The notes under the pieces: model-generated | Told to the model about the DNA's origin: nothing | The model's database searches: none | Seen by the model: the letters and a program-made list of their open reading frames with translations, nothing else | Shown: piece after piece, positions 36,961 to 52,330 of the stretch | Layout of the letters: each line of letters begins with the position of its first letter | Numbering within the stretch: the first letter of the stretch is position 1 | From: an uncultured Nitrososphaeraceae archaeon | GTDB lineage: Archaea > Thermoproteota > Nitrososphaeria > Nitrososphaerales > Nitrososphaeraceae | NCBI GenBank assembly: GCA_963837175.1 | Contig: CAWIMJ010000034.1 | Location: forward strand, 96,001 to 160,000 | Length of the DNA stretch: 64,000 nucleotides | Direction of reading: 5' to 3' | Made by a program: the position numbers and the translations under genes

Positions 36961-37857
36961 TTATCTTTGGACATTGCTTTTCAATACATTCCATGCTGCT
37001 TCAATATCTACTAATGGAGGTATAATTGATGACTTACGAGGACTATATAAAGAATTGGCTGTTCTAATAGCAAGAATTATCTCTGCTGCTGTAGCTTTTG
37101 GAAATACAGACCAAAGAAGTGCTAGAGCCCCCGTTACAAATGGAGTGCAAAGCTTGTACCACTCATCTGTATATATCCTCCACCGCCTTCGTCTGAAGAT
37201 GTACTGGTTATATTTACACCAGGGGCCATCAATCCACGATTTCCTATTGATTTACCGAAATTTGACATTGAATCAAGTTGCCCGTACTCATCACATGCTG
37301 CTACAGGAATGATCCATTGGTTGTTTATAAGAGAGATGCTGCCGATATTTCCTTGATTTCCTGATGCAGCTACTATTATTGTTCCGTGTAGACGGGCGTA
37401 ATCATAAGCTTCTTGTAGCCTAGAATATGTTATCAATGAAGATGAGGACAAGCCTAAACTTAGGTTTATAATTTTCACTTGCGCATCTACCACTTCTATA
37501 ATTGCTTCAGATAATTCTTCAGGAAGTAGGACGAGGTAGTATAATGTCTCTATTAGTTAGTGTTTGATCCATGAAAATGGGGCGTAATAGCAATGTACAT
37601 CCTGGACATATTGCAGGCGCGGATAATCCACGTTTGGCACACAATATTCCTCCTACAAACGTACCATGTCTGCAGGCTATACTGCTAGCACTTTTGCACA
37701 CTGCAAGTTGGGATTCTTTAACAGCACTTATTCTGGATCCCTGGAAAGCAGGATGGGTATAGTCGAGAGGTCCATCAATAAGACCTATACTTATGTCAGG
37801 ATTACCATTAGAAATATTCATCAGGGATTGTAATCTTATTTGGCTTAATGGATCCAT
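36961..37857 (-). CDS. PatA/PatG-like S8 subtilisin protease (about 298 aa when joined; single-base frameshifts near 37525 and 37148)
   Basis: IGLIDGP.D..HPAF (Asp), HGTFVGG (His), AASGNQG (oxyanion Asn), SGTSFA-[shift]-PFVTGALALLWS (Ser); AICPGC motif; no signal peptide. Confidence 0.88.
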
Positions 37858-37903
37858 TATCTTTACATTATCTTTACTCTTCTTTGCTTTGCTCTTATTT
37901 TAT

Positions 37904-38867
37904 TTAACGCTCAAAATACTGTTGCATAGGACTTACTAGGAATGGAAATTCTTCTGTTACATCTACTCTAACAAACCATTTCTGTATTGCTCTGTTAGTA
38001 CGATTCTCATATGAGAATATGACATCAACTATTTTACGAGTACCGCTAAGTCGTGATGGGAGAACATCTACAGCAGTAAATGAATAGTTTTCATCCTGCA
38101 TCAATTGAGTTCTATGATATATCTCATCATAACGAACTACTAAATAGTTAAGAGCACGATGCTCGTCTGTCGTACCCGCATTATCAGCAATTTGAATTAT
38201 ATGATTAAAAAGTACGTCAGTAGTTTTTCTAAATTGATCCTCACTTTCACCTTTTCGCTTAGGAATTGATTTCATAAGAGTATTTCTGTCAAAAGAGTAT
38301 ATTTGATCTACTACAACAATGGGTACCATAAGTCCATTACACTTTTCAGGTGAAGCCATTGGCCCTCTTCTTCCAATAATTACATCAATATCTACAAAGG
38401 GACCAGGAGCAGGTCGAAGTGCTTGAGCCAGTCTGTCTATATCTAAAGGATCAGTTGGAACTAGAATATATGTTTCTAAGCCTTCAATATTCATTACATA
38501 ACAAATTTGACGAGCTATATACCGGTTAACTGGATCAGTAAGAGGCAGCATGGATAATGTCTTCGCGGGTTCGACCCCTTGTCTCCTCTTCAGGCCTGCG
38601 ACCCGTAGCTTGTGCTAATTCTAGCTCCAAAGATCTAGTAGGAAAGCGATGAACAACTTTTCCTATAGCATATACATACAATGGATCAGCCATTTTACCA
38701 TCCTCAGAACCACAGGAACAACCTTCTTGTTTGCCGCATGCACAGGGTTTATCCATGGTGGTTTGTGGAGATATTTCTGTTTTATGATTGTTAGCGTTAG
38801 AGTGTCGATGTTCTGATGAAGGAATCTCGATGCTTGCTCCATTTTCTATATTTTGTTCATCTTGCAT
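37904..38867 (-). CDS. Stand-alone cyanobactin PatA/PatG C-terminal DUF protein (PatG_D plus PatG_C; frameshift near 38543)
   Basis: YVYAIGK...FPTRSLE; RYIARQICYV.NIEGLETYIL.P; CNGLMVPIVVVDQIYSFD; DNAGTTDEHRALNYL.VRY; SRLSG.R.IVDVIFS; VRVDVTEEFPFLV. Confidence 0.9.
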
Positions 38868-39726
38868 CTAACTATTGCTACAATATCAGTTATATCCTTT
38901 TCTCTAAACTTTTTAACTATTTGTTTTTAATGAATTAGTTTAAAAGATTTTTAAAATATCTGACTGAGATCTACCCACTCTCGATATTTATTAATCTAAA
39001 ATCAATTACATACTGAATAACATTAATTCGTAGACCTAAGTAGAAATTTGTAATATTACCGTGAAATCACTTTTAGAATAGTCAAACATTGCATAACGAT
39101 GGAAGAGGCTTAGTTTTAATAAAGCACCTATCTATCAATTCACTTGACTGGCTTCCCGAGGAGTTTCAAGGACTTATACAGCCAATTCAGGGTGAAGATG
39201 CGACCTAGCGATGAGACGTTCAACAGCCTGTTCAAGATACTTCATTGTGGGTGAGGGAGCGCTGGTGTTAAACCCATTTTCTTCATATGGGTAAGAGTGT
39301 TGATATCAGGAATGAATTCAGCACAAGCCATATTCCAATTTACTAAAGTCGATTTTAGCTAGGTACATTATTAATAAAAGAATACAACAATTCGATGTCG
39401 AAGTGGTTCTTACATGATATAAGAAAATTAAAGGAAATTTATAGCCGTCATCCTAATCCTCCCTGTTGGATATAAGTTTGATCATCTTACGACTAGTTTT
39501 ATTCTTGGGATAATTGATTGTTATAACCAAGCAGCATATTTAGTATAGTTGCTTTAGAGTTATTTATTCAATTTTTCACTTCTATTTTTATCTATCTGCT
39601 ATACACATTTCCTACTAACTGTTACTTTTATATTTCCCATATATAGAACATTTATGACTGTACCGTTTTAATATTTCGCAATTGAGCTGAGCCGAACTGC
39701 AATAAATCTATATGCGTTCCAGGACA

Positions 39727-40038
39727 TTAAGGACAAGTGGAGCAGGTTGGCTTACCACAACAATTTCCACCGTCTGCGCATTAGCAGCCTCCACACTCTT
39801 TATAGCACTCAAGCTTGCAAACTTGAATACAGCGCTCTCTTCGTGATCCTGACAGCCCCTCGCATTCCCCTCTATAACATCTTCCAAAACAATCGCTACA
39901 ACAGGAAGCAGGTTTTATTACTGCTGTTAAACCTGAATAACGATTCCTTAAAGAGGGGGAGGCTTCATGCCTATAGACAAACAAATTTTGAGCAGTAAAA
40001 CCTGGTAAAGACCTTTCCTTATAATCTCCTTTTACCAT
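39727..40038 (-). CDS. Cys-rich candidate precursor peptide with LPGFTA leader (internal TAA at 39781-39783)
   Basis: Leader ...SLPGFTAQ...VIKPA, core with 10 Cys to the first stop; the frame continues CADGGNCCGKPTCSTCP to a stop at 39727. Confidence 0.7.
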
Positions 40039-40172: not shown

Positions 40173-40330
40173 GGCTCTGTTCACTTAATTTTTCCTTTAA
40201 TAAGTATTCTATTATGCATATAAACAAACTGACTCATCATCCAATTGCTAACATGACGTTCTAGTTTACAGTTATCTCTTTTTCTACATGGAAAATAATA
40301 ATCATCAAAACATTCTGTTCTATCTTTAAA
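40173..40330 (-). mobile_element. IS6 3' remnant with TIR
   Basis: KDRTECFDDYYFPC...; GGCTCTGTTCACTTAA at 40173. Confidence 0.8.
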
Positions 40331-40626
40331 GTTGTATAGACATACCTGATGCATTTGCTGCACTTTTTAATTTCTCATCAACACTTTCTAATGCCGTCGT
40401 AACATCATCATCATCTTTATTATCACTATATCTACTGCCGGTCAGGAAGTCTTGTTACCCATCATCATCATTTCCATGATGCTTTGAGGAATCATTACTA
40501 TAGCACTTTAATCAACTGCTTTTTCTCTGCATGTTTGATTAGCTGCTTTTGCTGCTGCTGCATCTAAACCTGGTATAGTAGTAGTTGGTGGTGGTAGTAG
40601 TAGCAGGGGTTATGATACTGTAGAAA

Positions 40627-40857: not shown

Positions 40858-40955
40858 TATAAACCATCTTGTTATAGCAGCAGCAACTGCTAAATTCTAG
40901 CATTTATGACAAGGATATGATATATATTATTTATAGTTTTATGATGTGTTTTCTG

Positions 40956-41626
40956 GGCTCTGTTCACTTAAGGTTAAACCTATAGCTTTCAATATATTAA
41001 TTCCCTTTATGTTCAAAAGAAATAGAACATCTTCAAAGTATATCTATTATGCAAAGTTATATTTTTCAGGTCTATCACTTCGAAAAGCATCAGAATATTT
41101 GTCTGCATTTATCAAAAGAAACCATGTTTCTATTTGGAACTGGGTTCAACGATATAAGCCAAGATATCTCAAAAGAGAAAGAAGGTATCAGAATTTATTA
41201 TAGATGAAACTTTGCTTAAAGTTCGTAATGAATTTGTATGGCTGTGGATTGCAATTGAACCAATAGATAAAATAATTCTTGGTATTCATATTTCCTTTAA
41301 AAGAACAATGCTTGTTGCTGCAGAACGATTTCTACAAGAATTGGTTAGGAAATATGGAAAACATCCAGTTTCAACCAATGGAGGTACATGGTATCCACAG
41401 GCTTGTAAATTCCTGAATATGAATCATCATCATCTGCATTCCTCCTATGAGAAAAGCATGATTGAAAGAACCATACAGAGTACATCAAAAGGATAGAACC
41501 GAAAGCTTTGATCATGACTACTTTCCTTGTAGAAAAGAAAAATGTAAACTACAACATATCAGAAATTGGTTCAATTTTTTCGTTGATTATCATAATACGG
41601 AGATGATGGCTTAAGTAAACAGAGCC
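40956..41626 (+). mobile_element. IS6-family element with frameshifted transposase
   Basis: TIRs GGCTCTGTTCACTTAAG and CTTAAGTAAACAGAGCC; highly similar to 31557-32244. Confidence 0.92.
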
Positions 41627-42459: not shown

Positions 42460-44085
42460 TTATTTCAATTTAAGTTTGGTTTGGATTTTTTTACCAGCTT
42501 CAATTAAAAGTTTAGCATCCTCAGTATTTTGGTCCTTTATTTCATTCATAAAGTTATTAAGTTGACTAGAAGCCTGTTCAACTCCTTTGGATATCTTTAG
42601 ATCTTTTACAAGAGTTTCTAAAGCATCTTCGACTCCTTGTCTTATTAACCAGTTTTTAGTGTCGGTAGAACAATCACACCATTTATTTGAAATGTCGTTA
42701 GGGTCACCGCTCCTTTCAATACGTATTAATTTAGTTATATCAAAGCGTTTCTCTAAGAGGTTTCGGTATTTTCTTTTGTCGCCTGTATGATGTTTACTTT
42801 TGCCAGTTTTATCTAAAATTTCATTTATTTCCTCGTTTGTAGCGTTCTTTCTTTTTGCTAAATCTAACAATTCTTTTGATAAATTAAGGTAATCTGATAC
42901 AATATTGGTAACCTTCTCATCGTAGGGTGTTTTATCTTGATAGGTCAATCCATTCTTTCTGTTGATTACTGAATCATAATCTGAACTAACTGGATAATTT
43001 TTTTCCTCCATCCAAGGCCACACATCAACAACATAAACTTCTAGATTAGGAATTTTTTCTGCGTCTTCTACATCTGTCCAATAGTTCTGATGTGACTGTA
43101 TTAGATCCCTTAGTGGAGTATTGCTTAATATACCACCATCCCAAAATCGTCTATGACTTACAAGGTTGCCTTGCCGCAAGTCTTCTTTTAATCTCTCTTC
43201 TCGTTCTTTATCGCCAATGTTATTATAGTCATAATGTATTGGCACATAAGTATATTCGTAATGTATTGGAACTGAAGCGCTAGCAATTATATGTTCTATC
43301 ATCAATCCTTTATCGTATTCGATTTTTTGAGTGTATTTTTTTGTTAATTCTTCATCAAATCCATATTCTGAACTTCTAGAGCCATCTTTTTTTGTATAGC
43401 TATCAAAAACTACTGTTTCACCTTCTTCTACATCAACACTAACTGTAAGTAATCTTGGTTGTTTTATTGGTTGTTTCTTATCATCATAATAACTTGTTGC
43501 TATTGGGAAGTGGACATTTCTCTTTATACTTTCCCTTAACGGTTTATTATCATACATATACCAAGTATTGCTTGGTATAGTAAAATCATCAAAGAATTTG
43601 TCATCATAGATCTCCCTTGGTCTTGAGAAGACATTTGGAGCTCCTGATAATATATACTCTTTTGCAGAAAAATACCTTCTAGCCGCTTCTCCAGTAGCGG
43701 CAGTAGGATTACTTTTGTTTCTTTGATCCCATACATTCATCCATGAGTTTTCACTCCAAGCAAAGGGGAAGTTAAACCAAAATGGCCACCAATTACTTAA
43801 ATCTGGAGTAGACGATATATCATCCCAGAATTTTAAAAGTTGTAAATGTGCACCTTCCCATGTTTTATTCTCTTGAACATAATTTACCAATATTGCGCCA
43901 TTGATTGCGCCAATAGATGTCCCCGCAACTATATCAAACATATTTTCATTGTCATTCTCATTTTGAATATCTTTTCTTAGCCAATGATATAATGCAACGA
44001 AAACACCTGCTTCATAGGCACCGATAGAACCACCGCCTTGTAATACTAGAGCTCTCTGTTTAGGGGGAATATGTTTAGAAACCAT
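42460..44085 (-). CDS. Patatin-like phospholipase
   Basis: GGGSIG, GTSIG (nucleophile Ser), DGG motifs. Confidence 0.93.
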   Translation of the reverse strand: MVSKHIPPKQRALVLQGGGSIGAYEAGVFVALYHWLRKDIQNENDNENMFDIVAGTSIGAINGAILVNYVQENKTWEGAHLQLLKFWDDISSTPDLSNWWPFWFNFPFAWSENSWMNVWDQRNKSNPTAATGEAARRYFSAKEYILSGAPNVFSRPREIYDDKFFDDFTIPSNTWYMYDNKPLRESIKRNVHFPIATSYYDDKKQPIKQPRLLTVSVDVEEGETVVFDSYTKKDGSRSSEYGFDEELTKKYTQKIEYDKGLMIEHIIASASVPIHYEYTYVPIHYDYNNIGDKEREERLKEDLRQGNLVSHRRFWDGGILSNTPLRDLIQSHQNYWTDVEDAEKIPNLEVYVVDVWPWMEEKNYPVSSDYDSVINRKNGLTYQDKTPYDEKVTNIVSDYLNLSKELLDLAKRKNATNEEINEILDKTGKSKHHTGDKRKYRNLLEKRFDITKLIRIERSGDPNDISNKWCDCSTDTKNWLIRQGVEDALETLVKDLKISKGVEQASSQLNNFMNEIKDQNTEDAKLLIEAGKKIQTKLKLK

Positions 44086-47180: not shown

Positions 47181-49143
47181 CATTAGCTGCTTAATGTTCT
47201 CAGTAGTAGAACAGCAGTATCCTGAGAACCGGTACTTCTTTCTTTATAACGTTATCTGTAACTATATCTAATGCCTTAAGTTCTCTGGACGGCTCTACGT
47301 GCACTATAAGATACTGAATACCAGGTTCTTCAAGCCAGACGGCAAAAATACAAAGCCCAGCAGCAACAAGAATGGCTATCTTCCAAAGCATACAACTCTT
47401 TTCCGAAAAGAAACTCATTAGAAGTAGCGATTGCAGTAAACCTGAGAGAGTCAGAGGCAACTAAATTCTGTAGAGGGTAAACATTTAGCTTGAAAATCTG
47501 CTGTTTACACTTGCGACGGCTTACAAGACGGTCAAACATCTTCCGACTATCAGAAAAATCCCTGATGAATTATATGGGATGGAGATCGGACTAATAATTC
47601 CACCAGAAAAATAAAATAAGACTATACGGCGTCCACTAGTTTAACTAGTGGGCTTTGCTAGAACAACATTACTATAATTTTAGTTACTGAATAATAGTAA
47701 AAAGAAGATAACTTGTCCGACTAACATTCGAAGACATGTGGCTTCCCCTGCAAGACTACTTTGATAGGCTAAGAGATAGCCCCGTGGTTTGCCCATATCA
47801 TCCTACGCTCATACTCCCCACTTTTGGAGTGGTTAACCTACTGCTTAGAATGACATACATCATTTCTGAAGCGAATGCAAGCCTTTACTTGCAAACGTGG
47901 ACCAAAATGATGTATAATCTACTCTTTCGGTCAGTCGGAGATTATACCTTTGAATAAACCTATATTTAACTATCCTTGTTAAAATTAATTTATCTAGTAA
48001 TTTGAGTCTATTCACTTTACAATAAATTTATAGCCAAAGACACTCACTTCTTTTTCTTTCTAATTGTTAGATTCAAAAAAAGAGGTATGATAGCAATATC
48101 GCTGGTGCTATTATCTTATGTTGTGAATATCATAGCTAATAACATATCAATAAATTTTACATGACAAATAAGAGAAGAGATATAGAACATTACTTGAATA
48201 TGATAATATAAAAAAAGAGTTGCAGTTATAGAATCAGTGGGTAGCAGCAGATGCTTCGAAGATTAAAATTGATCATCTTTAATTCTTAATTCTCCCTTCT
48301 ACTCAGGATATTTTTAATTTTTTCGGCTAAACTGAGAGAAACTGAGACAATATTATGCACAAGATTCTCTATTTGTTCAAGTCTTACTAAATATACAGTA
48401 ATATCTATCTTATCTAAATCCATACTTTATGTTGGCTTCATCCTTCTAAAAAGATAATAATCTGGCTTGAATAAGAAGTGAAAATACAATAATCTGATAA
48501 TATCTCTAGGATGTGAAAACCTTCACTGTATGACCGTGTGGCTCGGTAACATGCTGTAAACAAATTCTATCCCAGAGACACATAAAAATTCTTTAAAAAT
48601 AAGAAATATCTCTTTCTCTGGGTGTGGTTATATGTTTTACAATAGAAGAGGACTGAGTTACTATCAGCTATCAATTCTGCAATAAACAACATCTGATGCA
48701 TCCACTATTTTTCCAATATATTTTCCACTGCATTTGTCACTTAAAATATTAAATTTACCTCTACCTTTGTGTATTATCTTTGCCTCTATTACAGCTTCAT
48801 CAATAACTAGAAAGCACCAGCAGGAGTATTTTTCTGCTACTATACTGCTTCTAACATCATTACATGGTTCCAATATAGTCTTATTGTACTTTCCAAGCTG
48901 AATTATGGAAATAATGATCTTCTCCTTAAGAAAATTACCAATCACAGACGCATTAGCAAATTTTTTTCTTGCTAGAAGTATTGTGGTTAGCTGTATCAAT
49001 AATATGAATAATGAGTTAATAGATTTAAACATTATTCTACTTAATCTTAACGTCTGTAAAGCATTATTTGAAGGTACTTTGTAATTATAAGTTCTATACC
49101 CTATTTTAGAATCGATATTTATCAACTGTAAAAGCTATAGTTT

Positions 49144-49398
49144 TTGAAAGATTTTAAACAATGTTATAATCCTGAAAATAGACACAGAAGAAAGGAAACA
49201 GAAAGATTCAAGAGTTTTACATATGACGAACTTTTAAAAAGAGATAGAGTCAATCTTGATATTTTCTGGTTGAGAGATGAAAGCCTTGAAGAATCAGATA
49301 ATCTTTCTCCACCAAATATTATAGCACAGAAGATAGTGGAAAATCCAGAAGCGGCCGTAGAATTTTCTCAAATTGAAGAAAGCTTAACAATAAAATAA
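49144..49398 (+). pseudogene. hsdM: Type I restriction-modification methyltransferase C-terminal fragment
   Basis: DF..CYNPENR..RKETERFKSFTYDELLKRDRVNLDIFWLRDESLE..DNL. Confidence 0.8.
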
Positions 49399-49559
49399 TG
49401 TATCGATATAATATAATTAATATAATCAACTCCAAATGTCTTCTGGAACCAACAATAAAAATGATAATTCCAAACTTCATGAACTAAAAATTCAAAATGT
49501 AATTACAACTCAGACTTAAAACAACTGATAGATATTACTAAGTTCAACGAATTTCATTG

Positions 49560-50520
49560 GGGAAGGTTATGATATTACATGATGCAGGCGGAAGAATTCT
49601 GATATTGAAGAATATAAGTCATTAGATCTTTTGTCTTATCCCCCTCAAAATCCAAAGACAATAATCGGCATTTATTAGTGAATAAGGGAAATCACTGTAC
49701 TTGAGCCTGCTTGTGGAAGTGGTCATTTCTTAACATCGGCCATGAAAGAGCTATTTTGATTCATAAGATCTTTATTTTTTTCATCTAACAAGAAAATGAG
49801 TAACTATGAAATAAAGATGGACATAATTACTGGTAGTCTAGTTGGGGTCGATATAGAGAGTTCTGGAGTAGAGATTACTCAAGGTCATAGTTAAGTCTCA
49901 TTGACGATTTCGATGTTAGCAGAGAGGAAAGAGAAATAGATACACTTCCCAAGATCGATATAACGTTGAAGAAGGTGGTGCCTTACCTGGTTTTAGCTCA
50001 CTGCCTACTGCGGAGCAAATGGGAATAGATGAAGATGATACAACTATTACAACAATATTTAGAGAAATTGATGAGATAAAGAGAAGTTTTAGAATGAATC
50101 CCCATCCTCAGCACGCAAAAGAAATAAAAAAGATTATTGAAGAACTAATTAATCCTTACAATAATGCTTTAAATTGGAGGCTTATTACGAACTTTAGTTG
50201 AACATAAAATTAGATTCTCAATTGAAGAGATATCTCAATTAAATCCATTTCATTGGAGATTAAAATTCACTGAAGTGTTCAGAATGAAGGAAGGCTTTGA
50301 CGCGATTGTGGGCAATCCACCCTATGTTGAGCGTAGTAAACTAAATTATCCAACAGCATTATTCAATATCAATAGCTGTGGTAATACATATGCATACTTC
50401 TTTGAAATATTGCTCAAATCTTGAATTCTAACGGTTATTTGGGATTCATCGTGCCCGTTCTAGCATTTCTATCGATAGAACGATACCACTCCAGGAGATA
50501 CTTATGACAAAGTGTAGTCG
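49560..50520 (+). pseudogene. Type IIG (Eco57I-like) restriction-modification enzyme remnant
   Basis: Motif I EPACGSGHFL (about 49703), GVDIE, PFHW...GFDAIVGNPPY (about 50314); multiple stops and frameshifts. Confidence 0.8.
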
Positions 50521-51391
50521 AATCAATGCAGGAAATAACAGTAAAGGAAAATAGCAAATCTACATACAGCATCGATTTTATTTCTAAAATAATAAGATCT
50601 ATTGCTAATCATTCTTCATCTAATCTAGTCACACTAAAACATTCCTCAAATAAGCCTCTGAAATTATAGAACTACTCTGTCAGATGCGGTAAAATTGCAA
50701 TTCTACCTAGCACCTAGAATACAAGTTCAATTGATAACCACATACTATTGGATCCTACAATCAAAATTTAAAACATCATAATTTCAAAAATGCACAAATA
50801 TACAATAGGAAAAACTCTGGTAAGAACCTCTTTCTTTCATATACTTGATTTGGACATTTACCGACAATTCATGGTATGATAATAATTTGGTTTAGTTTCG
50901 CAACCTGTATTACATGTGTGACGTTTTCAGATTGCATTTTATTCAATACTCAATGGGTAAATTTTTCTCTGCAATATGAAACAAACTCTAAGCAATAAGA
51001 TTATCCCCGAGTAAAAAATTGTATATAATGAATATAAATAGAAATGAAGAAGAATTTTAAGCATCAGTCGATTAAGAACAGATATTGGTTGTTTATTTTT
51101 ATTGAACCCATAGAAGATTCTATTTAGAAGTGGTCGTATCCATATGGCTAATTCGTTTAGTCCACTAACGATACGGCTTTATGTATTGCATGAATAATAT
51201 CCAATTTTTACATGCGAGGGACTTATCGAAAATATTATTAAATGTATATACTACTTTTTGATAAAAGAACATAGAGTCGATTTAAAAACTCTGACAAGAC
51301 CGGTTTCCGCCAGTAATCTTAAAAGATTTTAGAAAAAAGACGGATCAAAATAGTAAAATAACAGTAAATTCGATTTGGTTGCACAATTCAC

Positions 51392-51550
51392 CTAATCTTC
51401 TTTAAAGAAAGGTCTAAACTGAATATCGAAACCAGGGGAATCATTAGCAAATTGCTTTATTGTGATCATTTCACATATTTTGTCTTGGAGCTTTGAATGT
51501 TCAGCCAATTTCTTTTTACAAACAGGACATATCATCGTTTCATGACTCAT
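51392..51550 (-). CDS. 52-aa small zinc-finger-like protein (not in the ORF track)
   Basis: MSHETMICPVCKKKLAEHSKLQDKICEMITIKQFANDSPGFDIQFRPFFKED; CxxC...H...C. Confidence 0.55.
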   Translation of the reverse strand: MSHETMICPVCKKKLAEHSKLQDKICEMITIKQFANDSPGFDIQFRPFFKED

Positions 51551-52330
51551 TATATAACAATAACAAATGATCTTAAATCACAATTATAAAGATTTAAGAA
51601 GTATAAAAGCAGATCCAAATAATAAAATGAGAAAAGAACTGAACTCACCAACTGAAAAATACTGAAGAAGAAAAAATTAAGGAATATAGTGACAATATAA
51701 AATAACATCGATCTAGCATAGCATCAAATTAATGGAATTCAATTCTAATGTTTTTGGGTATGCTACTGAAAGGTAAGGTTGATGACCATAAGTAGCGATA
51801 TCGTAAGCATTTTGATACATAGAGATTTGGCGCAACTTTATTGCTATTAGATAATTTATACATCAAAGGATTCTCGTAGTGCATTTGTCCTTTTGGAGAT
51901 TCAAACTCATACCCTTGAGAGGCTATTGGATCTGCTCTTTGTTCTTCGAATGGTCATTCATCTCCTTTGTATAATTGAAATATTTCTGATTTGCAGACTA
52001 CGGTTACTTTTATCTTATGCTACTTAGGTTCAAATGCTATAATTCCAAAATCTTAAAGTTGCTTAAATTAATTACTTTACGAAGCTTTACTACATAGAAG
52101 AAAGTAGATGGTTATAAGGAAATATTTTACTACCATTGATGAAATCAAACGGTATCAGAATCATTCCTATTTTGTCCCAGCGGCAATATTGATTCTTTGA
52201 TCCATCATGATTCATAGATTATAACATGAAGATATATTTATTGGGTTACTATTAGAATTTAGGAGCAATATATGTAACGTTTTAAAATCTATATTGTGCA
52301 CATATCGCTTTTCTTATTTTCTGTAAATTT

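Follow-up and report, generated by a model that had tools for sequence, protein, structure and literature searches.

Genes of the locus

We analysed a window of 64,000 nucleotides from an uncultured Nitrososphaeraceae archaeon (positions 96,001 to 160,000 of contig CAWIMJ010000034.1; G000:C34:96001-160000, where G000 is the genome that holds the window). The window has ~33% G+C. Its minus strand carries the three genes of a putative peptide-maturation locus: a Cys-rich open reading frame (ORF), a gene for a stand-alone protein composed of PatG_D and PatG_C (a domain of unknown function, hereafter DUF), and a gene for an S8 protease (Table 1). ORF calls and Pfam searches confirm all three genes where a preliminary description, made from the sequence alone, had placed them, together with the gap of 46 bp between the DUF stop codon (37904-37906) and the S8 ATG (37857). 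None of the three products has a hydrophobic N-terminal stretch, so that the protease is signal-less, as described.

The protease gene is split over three frames. The middle piece (37134-37493) matches Peptidase_S8 with E 4.4e-14 and 52.9 bits against a cut-off of 21.8, which places the protein in PF00082. The piece at 37519-37857 matches the same family under the cut-off (E 0.0024), and the third piece (~36961-37155) is recovered by tblastn. An intact homologue from another Nitrososphaeraceae locus (L015) scores 104.5 bits. The nearest solved relatives of this homologue are the PatA/PagA protease domains (3zxx, 4h6v, 3zxy, and 4h6w; E ~1e-30), and other subtilases match it with E 1e-21 or weaker. 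In NCBIfam, the protease piece matches PatA/PatG best, at a score far under the cut-off of that family. In the S8 alignment the Asp/His/Ser triad columns are nearly invariant. They lie outside the six conserved columns at which the window protein differs, and the full triad first reported is thus unaltered; the window protein retains 71 of the 77 conserved columns, which falls in the range of the family. Four nearly invariant Cys flank the catalytic His (C59, C67, C89, and C92 in L015 numbering), which suggests a structural metal site or disulfides.

The DUF gene is split over two frames. The piece at 37904-38551 exceeds the Pfam cut-offs for PatG_C (E 6e-30; 104 bits, cut-off 25.9) and for PatG_D (E 1.3e-11; 45.4 bits, cut-off 27), assigning the protein to both families, and the piece at 38535-38867 matches the start of PatG_D under the 27-bit cut-off (E 1.2e-4; 23 bits). 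A profile of the DUF family matches the structure of the PatG DUF (4uvq) over positions 13-256 with E 5.5e-8. The window protein keeps 84 of 89 conserved columns, within the family range. The N-terminal region of the stand-alone DUF is variable, and it is Cys- and His-rich in the aligned archaeal copies.

The Cys-rich ORF has no match in Pfam or NCBIfam, and its best hits in a protein atlas look-up (scores 0.84-0.86) are all annotated as hypothetical proteins. It has a PGFTA box at residue 12 and a second box, V-I-K-P-A, that ends at residue 44, 33 residues after the Pro by hand count. As stated earlier, the window contains no YcaO gene; the sole YcaO match of the genome is on contig C50. A search of the window for relics of a radical SAM, tyrosinase, or extra precursor gene gave nothing below E 0.005 besides the precursor itself, and an Rfam scan of the whole window gave zero matches.

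Distribution of the gene set and its precursor peptides

A species-level scan (185,579 species, one genome each) yielded 263 candidate stretches, 241 of which encode a DUF relative; the locus statistics below use the best 80 of these 241 confirmed relatives. The DUF proteins of the 80 loci are 45-57% identical to the archaeal DUF, and the mean column identity of the DUF is 58% across phyla. A protein search with the L015 DUF gave at least 7,423 matches at E ≤0.001 among 8,000 candidates scored. Among the 120 matches listed, all are 261-347 aa long and contain PF18047 and PF18065, and the few with names are called 'hypothetical protein', 'PatG C-terminal', and, once, 'cyclic patellamide precursor peptide PatG'.

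A separate S8 gene adjoins the DUF gene in 73 of the 80 loci, and the two are fused in none. The S8 gene is upstream of the DUF gene in 66 loci and downstream in seven (five archaeal loci, L081, and L089), and it is absent in seven, several of which are cut by contig ends. The order of DUF then protease given in the preliminary description is therefore true for the Nitrososphaeraceae copies but not for the majority of loci. Five of the loci belong to Nitrososphaeraceae. The other 75 are found in Acidobacteriota, Nitrosospira, Nitrosovibrio, several cyanobacteria, Methylobacter, Brocadia, Dactylosporangium, Methanoperedens, Methanotrichaceae, and others, so that the system is specific neither to archaea nor to ammonia-oxidising archaea, where the preliminary description had placed it. 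When the ORFs of 83 loci are clustered, the only widely common clusters are the DUF (80 loci) and S8 (72 loci). A third cluster (23 loci) consists of opposite-strand frames over the DUF/S8 pair and is taken to be spurious, and the largest real accessory cluster is radical SAM, with five of the 83 loci. Across the 83 loci, no tailoring or modification gene, transporter or exporter, or (thiol) oxidoreductase is conserved near the pair.

Precursor ORFs accompany the pair. A strict motif pattern finds 194 candidate precursors in the 80 loci, 182 of them on the DUF strand, with a median length of 84 aa and a median of 6 Cys. At least one ORF starting M(xx)PGFTAEASLY is present within 3 kb of the pair in 71 of the 80 loci, which bears out the association of DUF/protease pairs with Cys-rich ORFs of this leader type that had been predicted. 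There is one precursor in 22 loci, two in 12, three in 21, four in 9, five in 5, and six in 2. Candidates are concentrated near the pair (184 within 3 kb, or 1.63 per 10 kb, versus 10 in the far flanks, or 0.074 per 10 kb), and six of the nine loci that have none end less than 1.4 kb beyond the pair.

The consensus leader is M-N-M-PGFTAEASLYKT...Y...V-I-P-Q. It is composed of a PGFTA(E/Q) box, ~22 variable residues, and a hydrophobic-x-P-(Q/A/S) box, after which the core begins. The second box is found in 124 of the 182 precursors (PQ in 72, PA in 34, and PS in 18). The median distance from the Pro of PGF to the end of the second box is 33 residues (interquartile range 32-34). In a precursor alignment of 124 rows, the Pro and Phe of the PGFTA box are invariant. 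The precursors with a second box average 0.44 Cys before this box and 5.85 behind it; an even number follows the box in 117 of the 124, and the commonest Cys spacing is CX3C (184 instances). Across the 182 precursors, the last six positions show no conserved residue. Eight representative precursors gave nothing under E 0.019 in Pfam (best 15.3 bits against a cut-off of 25.3) and nothing under E 0.08 in NCBIfam, all below the cut-offs. We also compared the residue at the end of the second box (Q versus A/S) with the S8 columns. Single loci mix Q, A, and S; the S8 column that we take to be the S1-pocket floor by subtilisin numbering is without Arg in seven loci, six of them non-Q, these loci being few and related.

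Loci of Methanoperedens, Acidobacteriota, and Alphaproteobacteria share the core type I-P-x-C-x-N-C-D-x-I-L-x-x-C...R-P-R-A-x-C-x-A-C (Table 1), indicating that not every core is hypervariable. There are also larger proteins with a PGFTA leader, of 115-530 aa (L021:8969-9466, L021:9957-10307, L022:8558-9145, and L014:196-1788). Three such proteins share a domain with APYWG(D/E)F(K/R)RE...KYSSILWGA, for which there is no Pfam family.

To the window ORF we applied a profile of 179 leaders, all from loci outside Nitrososphaeraceae. The window ORF is the best of the 56,280 six-frame ORFs in the genome (E 0.51, 13.2 bits; next E 4.6), and it sits 0.9 kb from the only DUF gene of the genome. It is also the only Cys-rich ORF of the genome with a PGFT-type start, and it scores E 4.2e-4 against a mixed alignment (A3) that includes the window row itself. 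By these sequence criteria, the window ORF is a member of the PGFTA-leader precursor family. A rhizosphere run (X9, record 26) contains a divergent allele of the precursor leader at 39885-40032, with 11 differences in 148 bases; of the six listed differences, two are synonymous and four are conservative.

Within Nitrososphaeraceae, PatG_C matches occur in 10 of 201 genomes, including the genome of the window, and in none of the six other genomes of its genus. In seven related loci (L015, L016, L017, L018, L019, L021, and L022) the DUF gene (311-331 aa where uncut) is followed directly by the S8 gene (299-301 aa). A radical SAM gene, below every NCBIfam cut-off, lies between the S8 gene and the precursor in L015, L017, L018, and L019; L017 and L019 add a 128-130-aa ORF without a family, and L017 adds a tyrosinase (Table 1). 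The window has no radical SAM gene, in keeping with its earlier description as a minimal locus, but the closest relatives in the family do. The precursors of the closest archaeal loci with radical SAM share the core CIVC(V/I)REC(F/L)LYP..RC.RCWNTCG. In a six-frame motif scan, ORFs of the form M..(I/V/L)PGFTA... are found beside the pair in L014, L015, L017, L019, L021 (three ORFs), and L022. Matches to the A3 precursor profile are present in 8 of the 201 genomes, and 7 of these 8 are among the 10 DUF-positive genomes, a co-occurrence that is partly circular for the loci that contributed A3 rows and comes from related, non-independent genomes. The exception (G067:C515:12830-13051; E 1.8e-8) has one internal TGA and belongs to a genome without a PatG_C match. 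A 677-aa fusion of S8, PatG_D, and PatG_C is encoded on an 8.9-kb Nitrososphaeraceae contig (L013:374-2407; G137:C85), and that contig yielded no PGFTA-type ORF.

In a quickly built maximum-likelihood tree with 60 DUF rows, the window DUF clusters with L015, L016, and L019 (SH-aLRT 100), and a second Nitrososphaeraceae clade comprises L014, L020, L021, and L022 (support 97). Both clades fall in an unresolved region among bacterial rows, and the row order departs from taxonomy. The tree is rooted on a single very long outgroup branch, and the direction of transfer cannot be read from it. Because the Nitrososphaeraceae copies are nested in a mainly bacterial radiation, they were probably acquired by transfer, although a single archaeal origin is still conceivable.

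For the purposes of this work, we define the split module by separate, adjacent S8 and DUF genes on the same strand and a neighbouring ORF whose N-terminal P-x-F-(T/N/S)-(A/S) box is followed by a second box, ending ~33 residues later, and by a core rich in Cys, the number of which is even. The window has all of these: separate, adjacent, same-strand S8 and DUF genes, and a PGFTA ORF with a spacing of 33 and an even number of Cys. In a search of a limited library of papers, we found none that describes a split system of PatA-like protease and DUF, leaders of the PGFTA type, or cyanobactin-like loci of Nitrososphaeraceae. The set of DUF, S8, and PGFTA leader is thus apparently an undescribed module, as first proposed, and one that is widespread in bacteria and archaea.

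Frameshifts and surroundings of the window copy

With intact relatives as queries, tblastn gives colinear matches over three frame changes in the window genes (Table 1). All three are single-base indels, as first reported; that they lie in short runs is only loosely right, since none is in a run longer than two bases. Twenty public runs from nine studies, all of soil or rhizosphere, contain the stretch, with no RNA run recorded among them, and the frameshifts were checked in contigs of four runs from four studies (X1, X2, X6, and X9). At site 37145, every covering contig (X2, X6, and X9) has one extra base. At site 37524, X2 lacks one base, and the contig of X6 comes to its end. At site 38544, X2 and X6 both lack one base. 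Each of these one-base differences, seen in contigs of three other studies, restores the frame demanded by tblastn. The X2 contigs otherwise differ from the window by 2 letters in 781 bases and by 4 letters in 1,423 bases. Intact alleles at least 99% identical to the window therefore exist in nature, whether the frameshifts of the window are errors or mark a relic.

The assembly breaks other genes in the same manner. The dnaK gene is split into three matches with stops (G000:C12:133878-135615), and a frame change of one base outside homopolymers interrupts a gene for a class-I aminoacyl-tRNA synthetase (G000:C6:15702-17364), indicating that the assembly has indel errors in essential genes. Other long housekeeping frames are whole (11 of 13 sampled), among them those of two aminoacyl-tRNA synthetases (1,070 and 1,056 aa), rpoB (1,121 aa), and rpoA (1,284 aa); the genes of the thermosome (four) and of PolB (two) are whole as well. 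We consider it most likely that the three frameshifts are consensus errors of the assembly, and the genes are then probably intact in the organism, as the preliminary description had allowed.

The opposing account, that the window copy is a real, recently inactivated, strain-specific relic with intact sister strains, is clearly the less likely one, but several observations weigh in its favour and against the assignment to error. There are three frameshifts in ~1.9 kb here versus three in ~33 kb of the housekeeping sample, and all lie outside homopolymers. All seven substitutions relative to X2 in the two genes are nonsynonymous, which also fits a recently decayed copy, and several leave the family consensus (alignment A1, by eye). 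The 8 kb around the locus are in the lowest 2.35% of 1,704 genome windows for long open frames and contain transposase, ODP, and NHL fragments. In addition, the best of the matching runs (X1) has no contig over 36900-38825 and is silent on the frameshifts. Against a relic stand the intact state of every covering contig from the three other studies, the breakage of dnaK (twice) and a synthetase gene by the same kind of non-homopolymer indel, and the genes themselves, which have no in-frame stops and keep 92-94% of the conserved columns.

Two other accounts were rejected. A pseudogene formed by decay of conserved residues finds no support in the columns kept in the DUF (84 of 89) and S8 (71 of 77) proteins, and a high frameshift rate across the genome does not suffice as the sole cause, 11 of the 13 sampled housekeeping frames being whole.

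The spacer between the precursor and the DUF gene holds several strain-to-strain indels in contigs of other runs. Directly upstream of the precursor gene are several fragments of an IS240/IS6-type transposase, of which 41212-41496 matches DDE_Tnp_IS240 with E 1.3e-6; two C-terminal transposase pieces appear alike by eye. The lowest cover of long open frames in the window (0.12) is at 48001-52000. A gene for a patatin-like phospholipase is located near the locus (42460-44085, minus strand), and a homologue in two frames (41% and 31% identity; L014:3267-5158) adjoins the DUF gene of L014. The phospholipase genes near both DUF genes may be remnants of a shared neighbourhood.

Table 1 Features of the window and of related loci. 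Positions without a locus handle are those of the window.
Feature	Position	Strand	Remarks
Precursor ORF	39781..40038	minus	85 aa; 10 Cys, all within the last 41 residues
Precursor leader, residues 1-44	39907-40038	minus	
PGFTA box of the leader (N-terminal), residues 12-16	39991..40005	minus	
Second leader box V-I-K-P-A, residues 40-44	39907..39921	minus	Proposed cleavage site after Ala44 (predicted)
Precursor core, residues 45-85	39784-39906	minus	41 aa with 10 Cys
Precursor stop codon	39781-39783	minus	
Spacer between precursor and DUF gene	38868..39780		913 bp; no ORF of 60 aa or more
Stand-alone DUF gene (PatG_D and PatG_C)	37904..38867	minus	Two frames, break at 38544; Pfam, tblastn
PatA-like S8 serine protease gene	36961..37857	minus	Three frames, breaks at 37524 and 37145; Pfam, NCBIfam, tblastn
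Frame change, DUF residue 113/114	~38543		tblastn
Frame change, S8 residue 118/119	~37524		tblastn
Frame change, S8 residue ~240	~37146-37155		tblastn
Transposase fragment upstream of locus	40181-40363	minus	
Transposase fragments upstream of locus	40946-41203, 41212-41496, 41462-41614	plus	Three frames
Recurrent-core loci	L038:5194-5463, L043:12696-12962, L082:7316-7576, L083:4970-5248, L061:2884-3156		
Accessory-gene loci	L017:1639-5504, L019:799-2352, L015:5026-6105		

Proposed maturation and comparison with known systems

We propose that a conserved module of three parts serves peptide maturation and that the locus is one copy of it. Together with the mechanism outlined here and the assignment of the frameshifts to the consensus, we give this reading a probability of roughly 0.7. 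In the window peptide, the S8 protease would cut after Pro43-Ala44 and so remove a leader of 44 residues. Cleavage is placed at the second box because this box has a shape like that of the PatA site, for which PMC10885120 gives cleavage after G(L/V)E(A/P)S, and because the Cys-rich part begins directly behind it. The protease would require the DUF protein as its partner, and this protein may dock the PGFTA box. The released 41-residue core, with its 10 Cys, would fold with disulfides (CX3C pairs) or bind metal. The even Cys counts and the CX3C spacing suggest disulfide-stapled folds, and a metal-binding role for the core is conceivable. As judged from gene content, the proposed pathway has no heterocyclase, macrocyclase signature, or dedicated exporter. 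The leader/core layout and the linked protease would fit a ribosomally made peptide with post-translational modifications (RiPP), with cleavage and modification as predicted steps.

Alternatively, the protease could cut near the N-terminus, after the E-A-S of PGFTAEAS, removing ~10 residues and leaving the P-(Q/A/S) box to another use. The consensus PGFTAEASLY does contain E-A-S, which resembles the E(A/P)S of the PatA site G(L/V)E(A/P)S (PMC10885120). However, the window and its archaeal relatives carry Q-N or E-N at this position, and such a cut would put Ala, instead of Leu or Val, at P4. The pattern of a hydrophobic P4 and a Pro at P2 belongs to the second box, and it is after the second box, not the first, that the Cys start. 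We therefore regard an E-A-S cut as improbable and retain cleavage at the second box.

The near-constant distance of 33 residues suggests recognition of the leader at two points. The DUF, with its S8-adjacent gene and its strong conservation, is an obvious candidate for the second contact, and docking of the PGFTA box by the DUF would explain the fixed spacing. This leads to a more far-reaching and tentative idea, which we hold to be possible rather than probable: the free-standing DUF would be a leader-docking subunit that grips PGFTA while S8 cuts 33 residues downstream, as a molecular ruler, and the pair would mature a large, unnamed class of peptides rich in disulfides in many bacterial phyla and in soil ammonia-oxidising archaea.

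Several points count against the proposal. By analogy, docking is countered by the observation, in PMC4259220, that the PatG DUF bound no PatE precursor by NMR. Three loci (L033, L101, and L103) have full flanks yet no precursor, and 58 of the 182 candidate precursors have no recognisable second box under the pattern used. The window leader itself reaches only E 0.51 against the purely bacterial profile, which is weak taken alone, and its PGF box is 11 residues after the Met, whereas it is 0-4 residues after it in most precursors. Finally, with no conserved exporter or thiol oxidoreductase nearby, disulfide formation and export lack an explanation.

The small ORFs could instead be pro-forms of intracellular Cys-rich proteins that bind or store a metal such as copper, with S8/DUF as the activating protease. 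This would be consistent with the lack of an exporter or signal peptide, with CX3C as the commonest Cys spacing, with the length of some 'precursors' (115-530 aa), and with the copper-dependent ammonia or methane oxidisers among the hosts (Nitrososphaeraceae, Nitrosospira, Nitrosovibrio, Methylobacter, and Methanoperedens). We nevertheless think it unlikely, as the hosts are mostly Acidobacteriota and cyanobacteria, the even Cys number in 117 of 124 precursors favours disulfide pairs over thiolate clusters, and the tandem arrays of up to six hypervariable cores resemble diversified secreted peptides.

If the proposed module holds, it bears on the function of the DUF. PMC4259220 gives the function of the PatG DUF as unknown, and the domain, which is fused to PatA and PatG, has been without one ever since 2014, the year of its structure. 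In the present loci it forms a separate, strongly conserved protein beside a PatA-like protease and precursors with leaders of fixed length, and its role can for this reason be tested directly, using a peptide and two small proteins. Leader docking, if true, would be the first function for the DUF of PatA/PatG. As the module is common and its precursors have no Pfam or NCBIfam model and no paper that we found, the hundreds of hypervariable Cys-rich cores constitute an untapped peptide library. Ammonia-oxidising archaea gain a transferable peptide-producing locus, present in soil and rhizosphere metagenomes of nine studies.

Nif11/NHLP-leader peptides and prochlorosins combine a conserved leader with hypervariable cores, many per locus, and are processed by a C39 peptidase-transporter. 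The precursors described here are similar in having a conserved leader, hypervariable cores, and one to six tandem paralogous genes, but they differ in the leader motif, in the use of S8 rather than C39, and in the lack of a conserved modifying enzyme. Maturases of the radical SAM/SPASM type are called to mind by the radical SAM genes of L015, L017, L018, and L019, whereas the window has neither such a gene nor a relic of one.

The closest comparison is with the cyanobactin proteases. Like PatA/PagA (4h6v, 3zxx, 3zxy, and 4h6w), the S8 protein has a signal-less subtilisin-type domain of ~300 aa and is linked to a PatG_D/PatG_C domain, and the proposed site (hydrophobic P4, Pro at P2, and small residue or Gln at P1) resembles the PatA site. 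Unlike PatA/PagA, the protease is encoded apart from the DUF, in separate frames in the window and fused to it in none of the 80 related loci. It also scores far under the curated whole-protein cut-off of TIGR03895 (421.05 bits): the window S8 has 57.8 bits, the intact S8 of L015 has 97.5, and the DUF of L015 has 23.4, while the fused L013 protein passes with 698.3. The precursors are unrelated to those of the PatE type; they have another type of leader and no C-terminal motif like the AYDG-like RSIII of cyanobactin precursors, which also carry an RSII site. No heterocyclase, oxidase, or prenyltransferase is linked to the locus, the only YcaO being on another contig, and no modification enzyme is conserved in the 83 loci. 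Thus, although S8 and DUF are homologous to parts of PatA/PatG, a canonical cyanobactin-type pathway yielding N-to-C macrocyclic or heterocycle-containing peptides is very improbable.

The DUF resembles the PatG DUF (4uvq; PF18047 and PF18065) in its full-length profile match and in a common N.G.T...RALN(Y/F) stretch. It differs in being a free-standing protein of ~300-330 aa, and the columns of the Zn ligands H1087, D1088, and H1090, taken from PMC4259220 and mapped by us, are not kept. It is also much more conserved across phyla than is usual for a DUF. Overall, we see here a protease related to those of cyanobactin pathways but serving another kind of system.

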